DNA of 64,000 nt from assembly GCA_001823065.1 (NCBI GenBank), contig MHTJ01000004.1:37839-101838 (forward strand), read 5' to 3'. Within the stretch, counting starts at the first letter, position 1. Each line of letters begins with the position of its first letter. Source of the stretch: Candidatus Vogelbacteria bacterium RIFOXYD1_FULL_44_32. Lineage in GTDB: Bacteria; Patescibacteriota; Minisyncoccia; Phycocordibacterales; XYD1-FULL-46-19. The position numbers and the translations under genes were made by a program. The notes below the pieces were generated by a model, which made no database searches, was not told the origin of the DNA, and was given only the letters and a program-made list of their open reading frames with translations. This document shows positions 14,308 through 24,554 of this stretch, piece after piece.

Positions 14308-14841
14308 ATGATAATAAAGGAAGAAGGAATAATAAAAGATGGTAAGATTATAGTCCAAATAGGTAAGGGTTTGGGTGCTAGGTCTTTGGAATTTTGCTTT
14401 ACTGATTTTTTTAGTAGTATTAGTTTCCTTAAGGAACAAGAAAAAACCCCAGTCAAATCTGACGGTCTTCGCGCTGGGAGTTGGTTTTTTAAATCAAAAA
14501 TGTATATTGTTTCTGGGCAGACACCATATAGTGATGAAGAGATTAAACTGAGAATTAAACATTTTGTTATTAAAAAGGAAAAAGAACTCACTAAAATTTC
14601 AAAAGAAGTTGAGGCCTTTGAAAATTTTGACCAAGCACGGAGTGCCAGAAGAGGAAGAATTCCAGATGATGTACGATTATTTGTATGGCAAAGGGATGAG
14701 GGTAAGTGTATAAAATGTGGTACAAAAGAAAAATTAGAATTTGATCATATAATACCGGTCGTTGCTGGGGGAGCAAATACACAAAGAAACATTCAACTTT
14801 TGTGCGAATTGTGCAATAGAACTAAAGGTAAAAATATCTAA
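14308..14841 (+). CDS. HNH endonuclease domain protein (AT-rich, probably acquired)
   Basis: C-terminal HNH motif CIKCGTKEKLEFDHIIPVVAGGANTQRNIQLLCELCN. GC content is visibly lower than in the neighbouring genes. Confidence 0.7.
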   Translation: MIIKEEGIIKDGKIIVQIGKGLGARSLEFCFTDFFSSISFLKEQEKTPVKSDGLRAGSWFFKSKMYIVSGQTPYSDEEIKLRIKHFVIKKEKELTKISKEVEAFENFDQARSARRGRIPDDVRLFVWQRDEGKCIKCGTKEKLEFDHIIPVVAGGANTQRNIQLLCELCNRTKGKNI

Positions 14842-14983
14842 TATATGGCATATCAGACACCCATGTATAATGCTCCAGAAAATAATAAGACATATAACAT
14901 ATTACTTGTAATATTGGGTTTTATAACTATTTTAATCCCGATTGTTTTGTGGATACTTGATAAGTATTTGGTATAATAAATCT

Positions 14984-16003
14984 ATGCGTAAAACTAAAGT
15001 TGCTATCAACGGTTTAGGGCGGATTGGGCGTGCGTTTTTAAAGCTGGCTATCAAAAGACCGGAGATAGAAATAGTGGCGGTCAACGACTTGGGCGAGCTG
15101 GAAAACTTGGCTTATCTTTTAAAGTACGACAGTGCTTATGTCCGGTCGCGCCTAGATATCGATACTGCCGATGCTAATTTAAATATCGGTCCGCACGCGA
15201 TTAAATTTCTGCAAATTAAAGATCCGGCTCAGCTACCGTGGCGCGAGCTAGATATTGATGTCGTGGTCGAAGCAACGGGTGTCTTTGAAAGCTACGCCAA
15301 GTCCAAAGCGCACATTGATGCTGGGGCGCGCAAGGTAGTTATTTCCGCGCCGGTGAAAGACGAGCCACCAGTAGGCATACCCGGGGGCACTGTTTTAATG
15401 GGAGTCAATGATGAAAAATTAGCGAGTTGTCAGATTACCTCCAATGCCTCCTGCACGACCAACTCGGCTAGTCCCCTGATTGCGATTTTAAATGAGAAAA
15501 TTGGGATTGAAAAAGCTTTACTCAATACTGTTCACGGCTACACCGCCAGTCAGTCGCTGGTGGATGCACCCATGAAAGGCGACTGGCGGCGGGGTCGCGC
15601 GGCCGCTCATAATATTGTCCCGTCTTCCACGGGAGCGGCGGTCGCGGTGACCCAGGTGGTAACCGATCTGAAAGACAAGTTTGATGGTATCGCGATGAGG
15701 GTACCAGTCATTACTGGTTCACTAGTGGACATCACCTTTATTGCCAAAAGAAAAACTAGTGTGGAAGAAATAAATAATTTGCTTAAAGCCGGGGCGGAGG
15801 AAGGGCGTTGGCAAGATATTTTTATGGTGACCGAGGAACCTTTGGTTTCCTCAGATATTGCGGGCAATACTCACGCCTCGATTGCTGATCTATCTTTTAC
15901 CCGCGTGGTGGGGGGCAATTTGTGCAAGGTGCTCGCTTGGTATGACAATGAAATGGGGTATGCCAACACTTTAGTCGAGCATGTAATTAAAACGGGAAAA
16001 TAA
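14984..16003 (+). CDS. gap: Glyceraldehyde-3-phosphate dehydrogenase
   Basis: KVAINGLGRIGR NAD-binding motif and the active-site stretch SNASCTTNS. Start taken at MRKTKV, 6 nt after TGgTATAAT (leaderless). Confidence 0.9.
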   Translation: MRKTKVAINGLGRIGRAFLKLAIKRPEIEIVAVNDLGELENLAYLLKYDSAYVRSRLDIDTADANLNIGPHAIKFLQIKDPAQLPWRELDIDVVVEATGVFESYAKSKAHIDAGARKVVISAPVKDEPPVGIPGGTVLMGVNDEKLASCQITSNASCTTNSASPLIAILNEKIGIEKALLNTVHGYTASQSLVDAPMKGDWRRGRAAAHNIVPSSTGAAVAVTQVVTDLKDKFDGIAMRVPVITGSLVDITFIAKRKTSVEEINNLLKAGAEEGRWQDIFMVTEEPLVSSDIAGNTHASIADLSFTRVVGGNLCKVLAWYDNEMGYANTLVEHVIKTGK

Positions 16004-16527
16004 TGGCAGATTTAATTAATGATATGGAGTTGGGAGTGTCTGAAAATCAAATAGCAAAAACCGTTCTGTTGGCGACTGACCATGCTGGGTTTGAACTAAA
16101 AGAAAAAATCAAAAGTTTTTTGCGGGCCAATAATTTTGTCGTCGAAGATTTGGGTGCTTTTAGTATGGACGAGACCGACGACTATCCGGTGTATGTGCAT
16201 ATGGCGGGGAAAAGGGTTAGTGCCGAACCGGAAAAATATGTGGCCATAATTTTTGGTGGCTCGGGCCAAGGGGAGGCCATTGTGGCCAACCGCTACAAAA
16301 ATGTGCGAGCAGTGGTGTGTTACGAGATTAAAGAAGATATTGTCAAAATTGCGCGCGAGCACAACGATGCCAATGTCTTGTCGCTCGGTTCACGGTTTGG
16401 GCTCGACGAGGACGAGGCCAAAGAGGCGGTGCTCAAGTTTTTGACCACCCCTTTTTCGGGGGATAAGAGGCATATGAGGCGGATTGCCCAAATTGACAGT
16501 GAACCACGGAGTGAAAATTCTTTTTAA
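16003..16527 (+). CDS. rpiB: Ribose-5-phosphate isomerase B
   Basis: RpiB/LacAB-family motifs TDHAGFELKEKI and GGSGQGEAIVANR. Confidence 0.85.
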   Translation: MADLINDMELGVSENQIAKTVLLATDHAGFELKEKIKSFLRANNFVVEDLGAFSMDETDDYPVYVHMAGKRVSAEPEKYVAIIFGGSGQGEAIVANRYKNVRAVVCYEIKEDIVKIAREHNDANVLSLGSRFGLDEDEAKEAVLKFLTTPFSGDKRHMRRIAQIDSEPRSENSF

Positions 16528-16532
16528 ATATT

Positions 16533-17162
16533 ATGATTGAAATCACACCGGCAATTTTATCGAACACTTGGGGCGATATCGCAGATAAAATCAAAGAAAT
16601 TGGTGATGCTACCACTTGGGTGCAGATTGATGTCTGTGATGGTCATTTTGTACCCAATATTACTTGGGGAGCGCCCGATGATTTGGAACTATTGGATGGT
16701 AAAGCTAAGATTGAAATTCATTTAATGGTGGAGCGCCCTGAAGAAGTGGTGGCGGTGTGGATGAATGTCGCCGACCGACTGGTGGTGCATTTGGAAGCGA
16801 CCGAGAAAATTGAAGATTTGGTGGATGCTTTTCAGTCGACCAATGTTAAATTGGGTTTGGCTTTGCTTGTGGAAACACCAATCGATGATGTGGTGCCTTA
16901 TGTCGACAAAATAGATGTGGTGCAACTAATGGGAATAAAAAAGATAGGGTTTCAGGGTGAAAAATTTGACCCTCTAGTGTTGGAAAAAATAAAAGAGCTA
17001 AGGGCCAAGGCCCCAAATACAAAGATTCAAATTGATGGAGGAATAAATCTAGCCACCGGTCGCGACTGTGTCGCGGCCGGCGCCGACACCCTTGTTGTTG
17101 GCTCGACCTTGTGGGAAAGTGGGGATGTGGTGGATATGATTCATAAGTTTAAAGCGTTATAA
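16533..17162 (+). CDS. rpe: Ribulose-phosphate 3-epimerase
   Basis: Motifs DVCDGHFVPNIT, HLMVERPE and IDGGIN typical of Rpe. Confidence 0.85.
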   Translation: MIEITPAILSNTWGDIADKIKEIGDATTWVQIDVCDGHFVPNITWGAPDDLELLDGKAKIEIHLMVERPEEVVAVWMNVADRLVVHLEATEKIEDLVDAFQSTNVKLGLALLVETPIDDVVPYVDKIDVVQLMGIKKIGFQGEKFDPLVLEKIKELRAKAPNTKIQIDGGINLATGRDCVAAGADTLVVGSTLWESGDVVDMIHKFKAL

Positions 17163-17409: not shown

Positions 17410-18279
17410 ATGCAAACCCTCACTGACGACAAGAAAAAATTATTAGCCGAAAAAGCTGGCGACATCCGCCGGTCGGTTATTGAGATGTTGGTGCAAGCGG
17501 GTTCAGGCCACACCGCGGGACCACTGGGGATGGCGGATATTTTTACTGCATTATATTTTCATGTTTTAGAACACGAACCAAGAAACCCCAGCTGGAGCGA
17601 GCGGGACCGGCTGGTGCTGTCCAATGGCCATATTTGTCCGGTGTATTACGCCACTTTGGCGCACGCTGGCTATTTTCCCGTGGAGGAACTGAAAACTTTA
17701 CGTCAGTTTGGGTCACGCTTGCAGGGGCACCCCCACCGCGAATATTTGCCTTATGTGGAGACTAGCTCTGGTCCCTTGGGGTCGGGGCTGTCGCAGGCTT
17801 GTGGTATGGCGCTCGCGGAGAAAATGGATCATGGCCAAAATTCCAACAAATATATTTATTGCCTAATGTCCGACGGCGAGTTGCAAGAAGGCAACACGTG
17901 GGAGGCGGTGCTCTTTGCCGGCAAACAGAAATTTTCTAATCTAATCGTTATTATTGACCGCAACAATATTCAGATTGATGGTTTTACGGAAGACATTATG
18001 CCGCTGGAACCCTTGGCCGAAAAATTTAGCGCATTTAATTGGCATGTCATAGAAATTGATGGTCACAACTTCGACGACATTATCTCGGCGGTGGGCGAGG
18101 GGCAAGCGGTATTTGGCCGGCCGGTGGTGATAATTGCTCACACCACGCCGGGCAAAGGTGTACCGGCTTTTGAGAAAAAGTACGAGTGGCATGGTAAACC
18201 ACCAACCAAAGAGGAGGGGGAGATGGCGTTAAAAGAATTGCGGACATTAGGAGGTAAAATTAAAAGTGAAAATGATTGA
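17410..18279 (+). CDS. Transketolase, N-terminal subunit (split transketolase)
   Basis: Thiamine-diphosphate-binding motifs GSGHTAGPLGMADIF and SNGH. Confidence 0.85.
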   Translation: MQTLTDDKKKLLAEKAGDIRRSVIEMLVQAGSGHTAGPLGMADIFTALYFHVLEHEPRNPSWSERDRLVLSNGHICPVYYATLAHAGYFPVEELKTLRQFGSRLQGHPHREYLPYVETSSGPLGSGLSQACGMALAEKMDHGQNSNKYIYCLMSDGELQEGNTWEAVLFAGKQKFSNLIVIIDRNNIQIDGFTEDIMPLEPLAEKFSAFNWHVIEIDGHNFDDIISAVGEGQAVFGRPVVIIAHTTPGKGVPAFEKKYEWHGKPPTKEEGEMALKELRTLGGKIKSEND

Positions 18280-18943
18280 TATGGAAAATAACTTTCAACA
18301 TTTTCCACTGACCGAAAAGCTTCACACTGATGTTTTGGAAGAAAAATATGGGCCAGTTAGAGCCGAGGTTTTAAGGCATGATAATGAAATTAGAGAAGTA
18401 CATATTGTTGATGAAAGTGGAGTGTCTAGGACTTATGCCCTTACTTTTTTAACTTTTGATAAAAATAATAAGGAAATAGCTGAAATTGATCAGGAAATAA
18501 AAAATGGAGGACTAATTGGTAAGACTTTTCGTGACCATGGTTATGAAATTAGAAAGAATGTTATTCACGTCTACACTGTGGAATTGCCTGATTGGCTTAA
18601 ATCTAGATTTGAAAATGAATCAAACGAAGCTAAAGCTCGACTGTCGGAATTTTATGCTAAAAAGAAAGATGAATCACCGCTAATTTATGGTATTGTAACT
18701 GAAATATATAGTCCAGATTTTAGAGAACCTGAAATAAATAACATTGATACTAAACAAGATAATCCTTCTACCAACGCTTTTGAGTTGGTGGGTATAACAA
18801 AAGGCGAGATTTGGGACAGGATTGGCGATGGTAATTTGTGGAGCGGTTTGCAAGAAAAATTAGACCGAGCCAAAGAATTGGCGAAAACTGAAGAAAATAA
18901 TTTGGCGGAGCGGGTGGCAAGATATTTAAATAAAGATAATTAA
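18266..18943 (+). CDS. Hypothetical protein inserted between the two transketolase subunit genes
   Basis: AT-rich ORF with no recognised motif. Its start overlaps the tkt-N stop by 14 nt and its stop abuts the tkt-C start. Confidence 0.55.
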   Translation: MKMIDMENNFQHFPLTEKLHTDVLEEKYGPVRAEVLRHDNEIREVHIVDESGVSRTYALTFLTFDKNNKEIAEIDQEIKNGGLIGKTFRDHGYEIRKNVIHVYTVELPDWLKSRFENESNEAKARLSEFYAKKKDESPLIYGIVTEIYSPDFREPEINNIDTKQDNPSTNAFELVGITKGEIWDRIGDGNLWSGLQEKLDRAKELAKTEENNLAERVARYLNKDN

Positions 18944-18944
18944 T

Positions 18945-19940
18945 ATGTTAAATACTTCCCAAAAACTAAACCCAAAACTTTTTGACCTCAATGTGGAGCA
19001 GGTGCCTATTCGTGACGGGTTTGGGCAGGGGTTGGTGGAAGCGGGCGAGAAAAACGAGCAAGTAGTGGCGCTGTGTGCCGACCTTGTTGAGTCCACACGC
19101 ATCGAAAAATTTGCCAAACAGTTTCCCGAGCGATTTGTGGAAATGGGGGTGGCTGAACAAAACTTGGTGACGGTCGCTTCGGGGCTCGCTTCGATGGGCA
19201 AAATCCCTTTTACCGCCTCGTACGCTTGTTTTTCGCCAGGGCGCAACTGGGAACAGATTCGTACGACCATTACCTACAACGATGTACCGGTGAAAATTGT
19301 GGGGGCTCATGCTGGTATCTCGGTTGGCCCCGATGGGGGCACCCACCAAATGCTTGAAGACATTGCCCTAATGCGGGTGTTACCCAATATGGTGGTGGTG
19401 GTGCCGTGCGACAGTGTGGAAGCCAAGAAGGCGACACTCGCAATAGCGGAAAATGGTAAACCTAGCTATATACGCCTCGCTCGCAACAAGTCGGCTGTGG
19501 TTACTACCGCCACGTCGCCGTTTGAAGTGGGGAAAGCTAATGTGCTAGTTGACCCGGATCGGGCCGAAGTGGCGGTGATTGCTTGTGGGCAAATGGTCTA
19601 CTATGCCCTAATGGCGGCGCGCCAACTGGAGGCCGAGGGGATAAAAGTCTCGGTGACCAATTTGCATACTATTAAGCCACTAGACATGGAAACTATTCAC
19701 CGCGTCGCCGCCAACTCGGGCGCGGTGGTGACAGTCGAGGAACACCAAGTGGTTGGTGGGATGGGGAGCGCGGTGGCGGAAAGTTTGGCAAAAACTTTTC
19801 CGGTGCCGATAGAGTTTCTCGGGGTGCAAGATAAATATGGCCAGTCGGGCGAGCCAGGCGAACTTTTGGAGCACTATGGTTTGGGGGTGAAAGATATTGT
19901 TGGGGCCGTGAAGAAAGTCATAGGACGGAAGAAACGGTAG
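18945..19940 (+). CDS. Transketolase, C-terminal subunit
   Basis: Transketolase pyrimidine-binding domain FVEMGVAEQNLVTVASGLA. Confidence 0.85.
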   Translation: MLNTSQKLNPKLFDLNVEQVPIRDGFGQGLVEAGEKNEQVVALCADLVESTRIEKFAKQFPERFVEMGVAEQNLVTVASGLASMGKIPFTASYACFSPGRNWEQIRTTITYNDVPVKIVGAHAGISVGPDGGTHQMLEDIALMRVLPNMVVVVPCDSVEAKKATLAIAENGKPSYIRLARNKSAVVTTATSPFEVGKANVLVDPDRAEVAVIACGQMVYYALMAARQLEAEGIKVSVTNLHTIKPLDMETIHRVAANSGAVVTVEEHQVVGGMGSAVAESLAKTFPVPIEFLGVQDKYGQSGEPGELLEHYGLGVKDIVGAVKKVIGRKKR

Positions 19941-19989: not shown

Positions 19990-20088
19990 ATGGGCCGTTT
20001 TAAAACAAGGGATTGGCTGGTGGCGGTGATTTTTGGAACGGTACTTTTTTTGTGTATTTTTGTTTCCGTTTACATTTTGGTTCGCTAG
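19990..20088 (+). CDS. Small hydrophobic protein (32 aa) with strong SD
   Basis: AAGGAGG 5 nt upstream of the ATG. Translation MGRFKTRDWLVAVIFGTVLFLCIFVSVYILVR. A strong terminator follows. Confidence 0.4.
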   Translation: MGRFKTRDWLVAVIFGTVLFLCIFVSVYILVR

Positions 20089-20112: not shown

Positions 20113-20170
20113 GCGCGGGCAAGGTTGGATGGCGGGTGCGCCATCCAACCTTGCCCGCGCTTTTTTGTTT
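20113..20170 (+). terminator. Rho-independent terminator (long GC hairpin + T tract)
   Basis: Hairpin gcgcgggcaaggttggatggcgggtgcgccatccaaccttgcccgcgc followed by ttttttg. Confidence 0.85.
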
Positions 20171-22260: not shown

Positions 22261-22297
22261 CAAATTTTATAAGAAGTATATAAAGAGAGAAGATTTT

Positions 22298-22458
22298 TCT
22301 CGTGGGCGACGCCAGCAATGCCGCAACGTGCTGGGATGCTCCCTCCTTGTTTGTCGCCCACGAGAACCTTTGGCCACCTTTCCCTATCCGGAAGAGAGGA
22401 CTTGCTGGTTTTACCCCATTCCAGCTCCTTACTCTCTTTCGGATAGGGGTTTTATTTT
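22298..22458 (+). terminator. Two nested long inverted repeats downstream of glpK, the second ending in a T tract
   Basis: Inverted repeat tctcgtgggcgac/gtcgcccacgaga (22298-22365), and ccctatccggaagagag/ctctctttcggataggg (22382-22449) followed by ttttatttt. Confidence 0.5.
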
Positions 22459-22463
22459 GCCTA

Positions 22464-22491
22464 TTGACAAAAAAGTAGGGGGTGCTATAAT
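22464..22491 (+). promoter_or_regulatory. Consensus sigma70-type promoter (TTGACA-16nt-TATAAT)
   Basis: TTGACA at 22464-22469 and TATAAT at 22486-22491. Confidence 0.6.
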
Positions 22492-22497
22492 GGGGAT

Positions 22498-22790
22498 TGA
22501 ACAAGTGAATGACCAACTGACGGAAGGAGGTGATGTCTATGTTGGCCACGAAGTCCCTTGAACATTATTTTGATATGAAGACGACGGCAACCACCGCCAC
22601 GGCCTGACCGGCCATCGGCGCGCGCCCCAACAAACCGGGCATAGGGCCCGGGGAGGAATACCCATGAACATTCGGCGTCCGCGCGACTCAGCCGGCTAGG
22701 TACTCTAGCCATCTGCGTCGCAAATAAATTTGCCGTCCCCCGACCACGTGCCTTTATGGCAATCGCGCACGGGGGGCGGCTTTTCTTTTA
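22498..22790 (+). ncRNA. Candidate ~290-nt GC-rich transcript (promoter to terminator), possibly dual-function with a micro-ORF
   Basis: The unit starts at a consensus promoter and ends at the hairpin gccgtccccc...ggggggcggc plus a T tract (22732-22790). It is GC-rich with several internal hairpins and contains no long ORF. Confidence 0.3.
22539..22607 (+). CDS. SD-led 22-codon micro-ORF (MLATKSLEHYFDMKTTATTATA)
   Basis: AGGAGG at 22525-22530, 8 nt before the ATG at 22539; TGA stop at 22605. Confidence 0.25.
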   Translation: MLATKSLEHYFDMKTTATTATA

Positions 22791-23783
22791 CAATTTTTTA
22801 GGAGCGTAATCAGCTGGAGCTTCAGCTAAATATTTTTCAATTTTTTCTTTGGTCAAAAGGCCAGATTGGGCACCAACAGATTGCACTACTGACATCGAGT
22901 TTATCGGCGCGCGCTTGAGCGCCTCCGGGACACTCATTCCTAAAGCAATAAAAGAAGTAAAGGTCGAGGCAAAAGCGTCACCGGCTCCCGTGCGACTTAT
23001 TGGTGATTTTGGGTCGGGGTAAATTGGCATTTGCCACATGTCGGTACCGTCAAAAGTGTAGGCGCCATTTGGCCCGTCAGTCAGACCCACTATTTTGGGA
23101 CCCAAATTTTTAATGCTGGTCAATAGATTTTTCACATCAGTCTCGTCTGGAGTTTTTAATATTCGCCGTGCTTCTTCTAGGTTGCAGACAAATATTTCGG
23201 TCCGAGCAAAAATATCGGGCAGTTTATCTGGGCCCAAATTTATTTGAAAAGTCCCTGGTTGAAAGGCTAATTTGGTTTCGGGGTGAGCCAAAAGCCAGGT
23301 CGCCAACTGGTGGTGAAAATCAAGCGAGTTTTCACCTAGCGAGCTAAGGTAAATCCAGCGCGGGTTGCCAATATCCGGCAAACTATAATCATATTTTTCG
23401 TGCTTAATTAAAATAGTCCGTTCGGCGCCATACCACAAAACATAATGATAATTGGTTTTTTGGCCGGCATTGGTTTTTACCAAATCAGTCGCGACATTTT
23501 CCTTAGCTAAACTTGCTAGGGCTTCTTTACCTTCGTCGTCATCACCAATATTAGTCAGAAGACCAGTAGTAAGGCCCAGACGGGAAGCCGAGACAGCGGC
23601 ATTGGGCGAATTGCCGACCGCAGGCACAATGGTGACCGACTCGTAGGGGATTTTGTCACCGAAAGCCAGACAGATTTTGCAATTGTCTTTATTAATATCA
23701 CAATTGACCTCGGCCTCTTGCAGTTTAATAAAAGCATCAGTAGTAATATCGCCAATTGCTAAAATGTCTAGTTTTTTATTCAT
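22788..23783 (-). CDS. PfkB-family carbohydrate kinase (ribokinase-like)
   Basis: LDILAIGDITTD N-terminal motif and the GAGDAF anion hole. Start chosen at MNKKLD, which has an upstream TATAAT and AAAGG. Confidence 0.8.
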   Translation of the reverse strand: MNKKLDILAIGDITTDAFIKLQEAEVNCDINKDNCKICLAFGDKIPYESVTIVPAVGNSPNAAVSASRLGLTTGLLTNIGDDDEGKEALASLAKENVATDLVKTNAGQKTNYHYVLWYGAERTILIKHEKYDYSLPDIGNPRWIYLSSLGENSLDFHHQLATWLLAHPETKLAFQPGTFQINLGPDKLPDIFARTEIFVCNLEEARRILKTPDETDVKNLLTSIKNLGPKIVGLTDGPNGAYTFDGTDMWQMPIYPDPKSPISRTGAGDAFASTFTSFIALGMSVPEALKRAPINSMSVVQSVGAQSGLLTKEKIEKYLAEAPADYAPKKL

Positions 23784-23819
23784 TTCTAAATTATACCTTT
23801 CTCTGTAATTATTCCCAAA

Positions 23820-24554
23820 AATATTGGACACCGAGTGTCCAATATTTTAAACTTATGATAATGAGAAAGATAAAAATTTGTGAGGGGGAGTATTATCACA
23901 TTTACAATCGTGGAGTAGATAAAAAAGACATTTTTATTGATAAACGAGATTACGCCCGGTTCTTATTTTGTGTTTTGTTTTTCCAATCGCCACTTTCATT
24001 AGTTAATCCTCCCTCCTATATTAATTATTTTATTGGACACTCGGTGTTCAATATTTCTCAAAAAATTAAAAAACAAATAATTAGTGATAAGTATGTTGAG
24101 TTGGTGTCTTTTATATTTATGCCCAATCATTTCCATTTAATTGTTAAGGAAAAGGTGGCAGGGGGAATTTCTCAATATATGCAAAGAATTCAAAATTCTT
24201 TTACAAAATATTTTAATACAAAATATAAAAAGAATGGGCATTTATTTCAGGGGCCATATCAAATTGTTTATATTGAAGATGATGAACAGTTACTTTATTT
24301 ATCATCATATATACATCGGAATTGTCGGGTACTTAATGGTTGGAAGAATAAGGAGGAAAAGTATCCGTGGTCAAGCTACTCTGATTTTTTAGGCCCAAAT
24401 CGGTTTGGTGGTCTATTAGAACCAGAAATTATTATGTCCGAATTTAATAATGCTGGTGATTATAAAATAGAGGTTCAAAACAGTGGCGCCAAAGAGATAA
24501 TTGAAGATTTATTAATTGATAATTGATAATATTGGACACTCGGTGTCCAATATT
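23820..24554 (+). mobile_element. IS200/IS605-family (or RAYT-like) element with 27-bp palindromic termini
   Basis: aatattggacaccgagtgtccaatatt at 23820-23846 and its reverse complement at 24528-24554 flank a HuH tyrosine-transposase ORF. Confidence 0.7.
23855..24526 (+). CDS. tnpA: IS200-like HuH tyrosine transposase (TnpA / REP-associated-like)
   Basis: HIYNRG, HuH motif MPNHFHLIV and catalytic-Tyr motif YIHRN. Start taken at MIMRKIKI. Confidence 0.75.
   Translation: MIMRKIKICEGEYYHIYNRGVDKKDIFIDKRDYARFLFCVLFFQSPLSLVNPPSYINYFIGHSVFNISQKIKKQIISDKYVELVSFIFMPNHFHLIVKEKVAGGISQYMQRIQNSFTKYFNTKYKKNGHLFQGPYQIVYIEDDEQLLYLSSYIHRNCRVLNGWKNKEEKYPWSSYSDFLGPNRFGGLLEPEIIMSEFNNAGDYKIEVQNSGAKEIIEDLLIDN

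Follow-up and report, generated by a model that had tools for sequence, protein, structure and literature searches.

Gene X, a probable ancient passenger with a predicted chorismate-lyase/UTRA-type pocket, between the split transketolase genes of Candidatus Vogelbacteria

In a stretch of 64,000 nucleotides from Candidatus Vogelbacteria bacterium RIFOXYD1_FULL_44_32 (contig MHTJ01000004.1; hereafter the window), an uncharacterised gene that we call X (18272..18943, + strand) stands between tktN and tktC, which encode the two halves of a split transketolase. X is probably an anciently inserted, co-transcribed passenger, and its predicted pocket of the chorismate-lyase/UTRA type would have a small anionic metabolite as ligand or substrate, with no part in the work of transketolase. 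According to this reading, a member of a family with a sporadic distribution in bacteria of the candidate phyla radiation (CPR; Patescibacteria) and in DPANN archaea was inserted, presumably in the ancestor of a Vogelbacteria-related clade, at the exact point where tktN stops and tktC starts. It would since have been inherited together with tktN and tktC, being expressed by read-through of the gap-rpiB-rpe-tkt array, and would later have been lost from, or never have been present in, most related lineages. The protein would consist of the pocket domain and an acidic helical extension of about 70 residues, and the invariant Arg43/Arg55...Glu146 may serve to bind or convert a carboxylate- or phosphate-bearing metabolite, in an activity that most likely has no connection to transketolase.

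X and the split transketolase genes

The flanking genes are confirmed by Pfam as a split transketolase, with tktN (17410..18279, +) encoding the N-terminal, thiamine pyrophosphate-binding half (PF00456 Transketolase_N, 1.2e-66) and tktC (18945..19940, +) the pyrimidine-binding and C-terminal half (PF02779 Transket_pyr, 3.5e-39; PF02780 Transketolase_C, 2.4e-29). An earlier note, made from the letters of the window alone, had described an open reading frame (ORF) of 225 aa between these halves, and this ORF is present at 18266..18943 (+) when read from a GTG codon. Further upstream, the ORF translations identify gap, rpiB and rpe (14942-16003, 16003-16527 and 16533-17162, all +), and dozens of related loci show the order gap-rpiB-rpe-tktN-tktC as well. 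On the + strand between 17410 and 19940, no site resembling a promoter or a terminator was found, and the first intrinsic-terminator-like hairpin 3' of tktC, with a 20-bp stem followed by a T tract, lies at 20113..20160 (+). On these grounds we infer that X is co-transcribed with tktN and tktC, a conclusion that the earlier note had put more strongly, as something that must be so.

With respect to the boundaries of X, the 14-nt overlap with tktN reported earlier is obtained only with the GTG start at 18266. The closest homologue (L143, 81% identical) starts at an ATG equivalent to 18281, 2 nt past the tktN stop, and the equivalent of GTG 18266 is out of frame there; the copy in L008 starts at an ATG equivalent to 18272 that overlaps the tktN stop as ATGATTGA. 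Most family members have the N-terminus MEHFPL, and the NCBI annotation of 223 aa corresponds to ATG 18272. Because of these homologue starts and the NCBI call, X appears to start at ATG 18281 (220 aa) or ATG 18272 (223 aa) and not at GTG 18266, with an overlap of 8 nt for 18272, or of none, with a 1-nt spacer, for 18281. A Shine-Dalgarno-like GGAGG, read from the sequence within the 3' end of tktN (18250..18254, +), precedes the possible starts by 11 nt (GTG 18266), 17 nt (ATG 18272) and 26 nt (ATG 18281) and may be the signal for any one of them. At the other end, the TAA of X occupies 18941-18943 and the ATG of tktC begins at 18945, leaving a spacer of 1 nt where 2 nt had been given.

The arrangement tktN-X-tktC is found in all six closest lineages, that is, in the window and in five others. 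The X copies of these five are 81% (P0002/L143), 68% (P0004/L144-5), 64% (P0010/L004-6), 63% (P0006/L146-7) and 62% (Vogelbacteria RIFOXYD1_FULL_46_19/L008) identical to the window protein, with a 54-aa ORF and a ParE toxin between X and tktC in L144-5 and an extra small membrane ORF in L004-6. All tkt-located copies form one clade in the neighbour-joining tree of X, and X identities roughly follow tkt identities, with concordant closest pairs (window and L143, X 81% and tktN 86%; L144 and L004, X 76% and tktN 72%). Between the window and L143, nonsynonymous divergence (dN) of X is 0.13 and synonymous divergence (dS) is saturated at about 4. Furthermore, a sister lineage that lacks X (L079) has only 3 nt from the tktN stop to the tktC ATG, and about 50 other X loci, in CPR and DPANN genomes, have no tkt gene within 6 kb, the linkage of X to tkt being confined to one clade of six lineages. 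The position of X exactly between stop and start, the 3-nt gap in L079, the location of most of the family elsewhere and the presence of other cargo at this junction (see below) support the acquired passenger that the earlier note had offered as one option. The insertion would, however, be ancient rather than recent, given the single X clade, the dS of about 4 and the way in which X and tkt identities track each other.

The same note had also considered a role for X in the split enzyme itself. A functional tie to the split transketolase or to the pentose-phosphate array in this clade, for example as a sugar-phosphate-sensing modulator or as an assembly factor for TktN and TktC, is unlikely in our estimate. 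None of 80 metagenomic loci with a close tktN relative (62-73% identity) has X, the halves are directly adjacent in 28 of 63 related loci, none of the roughly 50 family members from other CPR and DPANN genomes has tkt or any other pentose-phosphate gene nearby, and the junction that holds X also takes toxin-antitoxin pairs and membrane proteins. The proposal of an assembly factor finds no support in the first and third of these observations. What would speak for a tie is the long retention of X at this site, which we weigh below.

No gene accompanies X throughout the family. In a neighbour clustering of 757 ORFs from 59 X loci, no cluster recurred beyond close relatives, and in a Pfam scan of 91 genes adjoining X no family was found in more than three; likewise, neither ubiA nor shikimate genes adjoin any X copy, and no neighbour of any kind is recurrent. 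In several DPANN loci (among them L001 and the P0085 contig), TrmB-family regulator genes do lie near X, at distances of about 0.1-3 kb. They occur at variable positions in 5 of the 59 clustered loci and in L150, where the two genes are divergently adjacent, and this proximity may be synteny among relatives rather than linkage.

The protein family and its predicted fold

X is 100% identical to "hypothetical protein A2571_03210" (P0001) of Candidatus Vogelbacteria RIFOXYD1_FULL_44_32, and sequence-model libraries give no match to it, in line with the earlier description of a protein without recognisable motif. There was no match in Pfam (E ≤ 1), NCBIfam (E ≤ 10) or PADLOC (E ≤ 10), only noise in PHROGs (E > 0.05), and no significant match among PDB sequences, whether with X in phmmer or with the family profile in hmmsearch. 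Homologues are numerous (more than 345) and come from Parcubacteria, other CPR bacteria and DPANN archaea (Woese-, Pace-, Nano-, Iain- and Parvarchaeota), reaching 81% identity and standing at about 50% between bacteria and DPANN archaea. In an alignment of 52 sequences, 32 columns are invariant, and His, Arg, Lys, Glu, Asp and Tyr are frequent among them. The homologues, the invariant columns and a dN of 0.13 at saturated dS together indicate that X is a real protein-coding gene under strong purifying selection.

An exhaustive profile search of 1.84 billion cluster representatives returned 403 X clusters at 50% identity, many of them short forms of 160-200 aa that align only to the first ~150 residues, some from Bacteroidota and Chlorobi-like organisms. 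In this wider set, R43, G85 and E146 are invariant and T21, G29, D49, R55, T56, G81 and P150 are at least 90% conserved (residues are numbered from the GTG codon throughout). Bacterial and archaeal copies stand mostly apart in the X tree, with the CPR-labelled L011 and L020 nested in the DPANN clade; the tree also holds copies labelled Geobacteraceae (L053) and Spirochaetaceae (L048). These four placements reflect either extra inter-domain transfers or binning errors.

Modelling with AlphaFold2 and the family alignment gave a mean predicted local distance difference test score (pLDDT) of 92.6 and a predicted template modelling score of 0.87. Residues 12-152 (18299..18721, +) form a core domain that is predicted to be an alpha+beta ligand-pocket domain of the chorismate-lyase/UTRA type: the model has the alpha+beta fold of UbiC-type chorismate lyases and the pocket fold of UTRA-type effector domains, and it shares its three-dimensional fold with AF1396 (DUF98/Rv2949c-like). 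The core is followed by a helical extension, residues 153-225 (18722..18940, +), with four helices (159-163, 169-174, 179-187 and 196-221, all with pLDDT ≥ 94), which is found only in the long form of the family and has no counterpart in the relatives of 160-200 aa.

Each of the known relatives of this fold differs from X in its own way. AF1396 of Archaeoglobus fulgidus (PDB 2nwi; Pfam DUF98) is 15-18% identical to X, which adds the helical C-terminus of about 70 residues; a function for AF1396 has been given as a prediction only (PMC3089730). The UTRA domains of GntR/HutC repressors (DasR, NagR/YvoA, PhnF, TreR) follow an N-terminal winged-helix GntR domain that X lacks, its pocket domain beginning at about residue 12 and leaving no space for one; X is, in addition, acidic and without a match to PF07702. 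UbiC of E. coli (PDB 1fw9) has no sequence or profile similarity to X and, as stated above, X copies do not adjoin ubiA or shikimate genes. X is thus best described as a variant of the chorismate-lyase/UTRA fold superfamily with a C-terminal helical module, and not as a member of UbiC, DUF98 or UTRA at the level of sequence. R43, R55 and E146, in which we sought counterparts of the catalytic Arg and Glu of UbiC, are invariant or near-invariant across the superfamily, and an Arg/Arg/Glu set kept across 403 clusters would resemble an active site more than an effector pocket. A transaldolase analogue, to which the size of about 215 aa and the pentose-phosphate setting had pointed, was rejected, since the fold is of the chorismate-lyase/UTRA type and not a TIM barrel, and since pentose-phosphate genes show no linkage to the family.

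Two distant short forms occur in gene contexts that suggest a chemistry. In Pontimicrobium aquaticum (L149; SUPL01000005.1, 4922-9782), a 164-aa short form precedes a beta-RFAP-synthase-family gene (TIGR00144, 164.7 bits; cutoff 113.5) by two positions, in the order Dam-like methyltransferase, X-like protein, DrmC-like protein of 239 aa, beta-RFAP-synthase-family protein and Ham1-nucleotide-kinase fusion. These genes suggest an uncharacterised island for defence or for the modification of nucleotides or DNA, whose product could be a C-ribosylated aromatic compound. The putative operon is flanked by a DEAD/ResIII helicase, RadC and an IS1 transposase. The second context (L151, 1198-6864) resembles a small cluster for phenolic metabolites and runs from arylsulfotransferase through sulfotransferase, major facilitator superfamily transporter and X-like protein (a 176-aa short form) to flavin monooxygenase. 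Beta-RFAP synthases C-ribosylate aromatic acids, condensing an aromatic acid with phosphoribosyl pyrophosphate, and arylsulfotransferases act on phenols. By analogy, both operons point suggestively to aromatic-acid chemistry and would fit a chorismate-lyase-like supplier; a third short-form context (L152-5) was uninformative. A more far-reaching proposal, to which we give a small chance only, is that the family is an unrecognised enzyme class on the chorismate-lyase fold, transferred between CPR bacteria and DPANN archaea, that would catalyse a salvage or signalling reaction with a host-derived aromatic or anionic metabolite and would have been recruited to the pentose-phosphate operon of the Vogelbacteria clade through its substrate or product.

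The fold could also be that of a sensor. X would then be a one-component transcription factor of reversed HutC architecture, with a UTRA-like sensor at the N-terminus and, towards the C-terminus, a segment resembling a helix-turn-helix at 169-187 (‘AFELVGITKGEIWDRI’), in keeping with the fold neighbours of the model, which are mostly GntR/HutC effector domains, with the pair of helices and the conserved Gly in the turn between them, and with the solitary occurrence of X, which has no fixed neighbours, a frequent trait of regulators. We nevertheless regard this as improbable: no helix-turn-helix family matches at E ≤ 10, the family is acidic (mean isoelectric point about 6.0), with a net negative charge on the putative recognition segment as well (-1.8 for residues 165-190), the short forms lack the C-terminal part, and a DNA-binding regulator would rarely have about 50% identity between bacteria and archaea together with some 30 invariant residues. 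A DNA-binding regulator as leading explanation was accordingly dropped, for its acidic charge and the lack of a helix-turn-helix model. The regulator suggested in the earlier note fares no better, since to these points are added the 80 tktN relatives that lack X and the roughly 50 family members away from tkt.

Several points weigh against our interpretation of X as an ancient, functionally independent passenger with a metabolite pocket. The fold assignment comes from a predicted structure, and sequence models and profiles give no link to UbiC, DUF98 or UTRA: PF04345, PF01947 and PF07702 have no match at E ≤ 10 among 53 diverse family members, the family profile did not find 2nwi among PDB sequences, and hhalign of the X profile with E. 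coli UbiC and a 14-sequence UbiC alignment returned a probability of 0.6-0.7%, in what is a weak test as that alignment is shallow (≥83% identity). R43, R55 and E146 are candidates only for residues that line the pocket. The relatives in L149 and L151 are only about 30% identical to X and lack the C-terminal extension, and no homologues of the Pontimicrobium operon genes were found near long-form X. CPR and DPANN organisms are generally not known to synthesise chorismate. As to the history of X, the lineages that carry it stand at three distinct positions in the tktN tree, with X-less lineages between them, so that a single gain has to be combined either with repeated loss or with transmission by recombination. 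The simplest history would be that X was inserted once, long ago, and was then either lost several times or spread by recombination in the flanking genes; the X and tktN trees, both neighbour-joining and unbootstrapped, cannot decide between these. Finally, X has long been retained with a coupling of 0-8 nt to both tkt halves, and this retention and tight coupling could mark a functional tie specific to the clade.

Composition of X and cargo of the array

The visibly lower GC of X that had first drawn attention to it holds in sliding windows as well as at third codon positions (GC3). In 400-nt windows, GC is 0.32-0.35 across X (0.34 for the gene) versus 0.47-0.55 on both flanks, and the GC3 of X is 0.25 versus a mean of 0.454 (standard deviation 0.078) for the 58 ORFs called in the window, about 2.6 standard deviations below that mean; tktN and tktC have GC3 of 0.54 and 0.59. 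Just one window ORF is as AT-rich, with a GC3 of 0.24. It encodes 177 aa (14308-14841, +) with a C-terminal HNH domain (PF01844, 3.5e-12), lies between gatB and gap, and is a further interstitial insert of the same conserved array.

This composition might be read as a recent horizontal acquisition from a low-GC donor, an explanation that we hold to be quite unlikely. X shares its low GC3 in the window only with the HNH ORF, an IS200-like region (see below) is low in GC as well, and across the family the GC of X falls below that of neighbouring genes in 48 of 59 loci, and its GC3 does so in 51 of 59 (mean difference -0.065). However, the closest tkt-located copies have reached saturation at synonymous sites and yet both are still low, and GC3 of X is below both tkt flanks in 6 of 6 tkt-located lineages (window, L004, L008, L143, L144 and L146), including the high-GC lineage L144, where X reaches 0.57 and the flanks 0.65-0.66. 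Because synonymous sites are saturated and the deficit is nevertheless present in all six lineages, the low GC of X is a maintained, gene-specific property and not a signature of fresh transfer. Weaker selection for GC-ending codons against AT-biased mutation pressure is a possible cause. X matches only in part the conserved operon member of normal composition that the earlier note had set against an insertion: tktN-X-tktC is conserved in six lineages, but with GC3 below the flanks in every one.

The tkt halves, said in that note to be normally adjacent, are so in a good part of their relatives only. Among 63 related loci with both halves, the tktN-tktC gap is at most 30 nt in 28, 31-149 nt in 10 and 150-3632 nt in 25, and the extra DNA is below the GC of its flanks in 25 of 25 inserts of at least 150 nt (mean difference 0.096). 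The occupants of this junction in relatives are unrelated to X and comprise a PemK/MazF toxin with a PaaX/Cas2-like protein, a Gp49-type toxin with a helix-turn-helix partner, nucleotidyltransferase with HEPN, nucleotidyltransferase with HepT, MazG-like and DUF1653 proteins, and small membrane or Cys-rich proteins (examples among relatives L063-L142 are L066, 871-2867; L071, 1022-2063; L073, 5858-6678; and L136, 5837-9473). As a control, we counted inserts of at least 150 nt at the other junctions of the array and found them in 17 of 33 loci for gap-rpiB, 18 of 52 for rpe-tktN and 7 of 47 for rpiB-rpe, compared with 25 of 64 for tktN-tktC. The idea of a special hot spot between tktN and tktC was therefore toned down, the other junctions being interrupted about as often. 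Since these junctions also carry inserts, and the window itself has the HNH ORF, X is one passenger among many in a conserved array tolerant of interruption. It resembles the interstitial cargo of CPR arrays (toxin-antitoxin pairs, HNH proteins, small membrane proteins) in its placement and its low GC, but differs in being far more conserved and more widely distributed, and in having been kept at its site across deep divergence.

It is quite improbable that X is itself selfish or defence-type cargo (a toxin, an antitoxin or an anti-phage factor): the PemK/MazF, Gp49-type and nucleotidyltransferase pairs at the junction, the ParE toxin adjoining X in L144, a homologue with a TaqI-like restriction enzyme and an IS200-type transposase as neighbours, and the distant short form in the island with Dam-like methyltransferase, DrmC-like protein and Ham1-kinase all favour it, but PADLOC has no match at E ≤ 10, there is no conserved partner gene, flanking repeat or integrase, no copy was found on viral contigs, phage records or the plasmid records searched, and X has been retained vertically for long under strong purifying selection. 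In the searches behind this statement, IMG/VR and phage records held no X relatives, BFVD gave weak GntR-like fold matches only, plasmid records had no match for the short-form homologue P0252 (the only query used there, the window protein itself not being searched), and no credible direct or inverted repeats were found around 18266-18943.

Neighbouring features and meaning of the family

Other parts of the window hold features of separate interest. Just 3' of tktC and before the hairpin at 20113-20160, a mini-ORF (19990-20088, +) with an AGGAGG ribosome-binding site encodes a hydrophobic peptide of 32 aa. Between glpK and a pfkB-family gene, about 520 nt (22270-22780) are without ORFs at a GC of about 0.53; the minus strand of this segment folds with a z-score of -4.4 versus shuffles, and a search of Rfam gave no family at E ≤ 0.1 or at the gathering score. 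A structured RNA that has escaped annotation may lie here. Furthermore, a 256-aa ORF with a GC of about 0.30 (23756-24526, +), which adjoins the pfkB-family sugar kinase gene, carries an IS200-like Y1 transposase domain (PF01797, 4.9e-11).

If X is the ancient passenger with a metabolite pocket that we propose, an unannotated family of 403 clusters at 50% identity, for which neither Pfam nor NCBIfam has a model, would gain a definition and a fold, and X would be among the few families common to CPR bacteria and DPANN archaea at about 50% identity. Strongly conserved and confidently folded, in organisms whose accessory genes are mostly opaque, the family would offer biochemical screens a concrete target. 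Conserved hypotheticals abound in CPR genomes, and in the array described here cargo within the operon is evidently commonplace. Because array junctions, even the one between the halves of a single enzyme, commonly hold unrelated cargo, a CPR gene wedged into an operon need not be functionally linked to its neighbours. A low-GC signature, moreover, can last very long and so does not date an acquisition.

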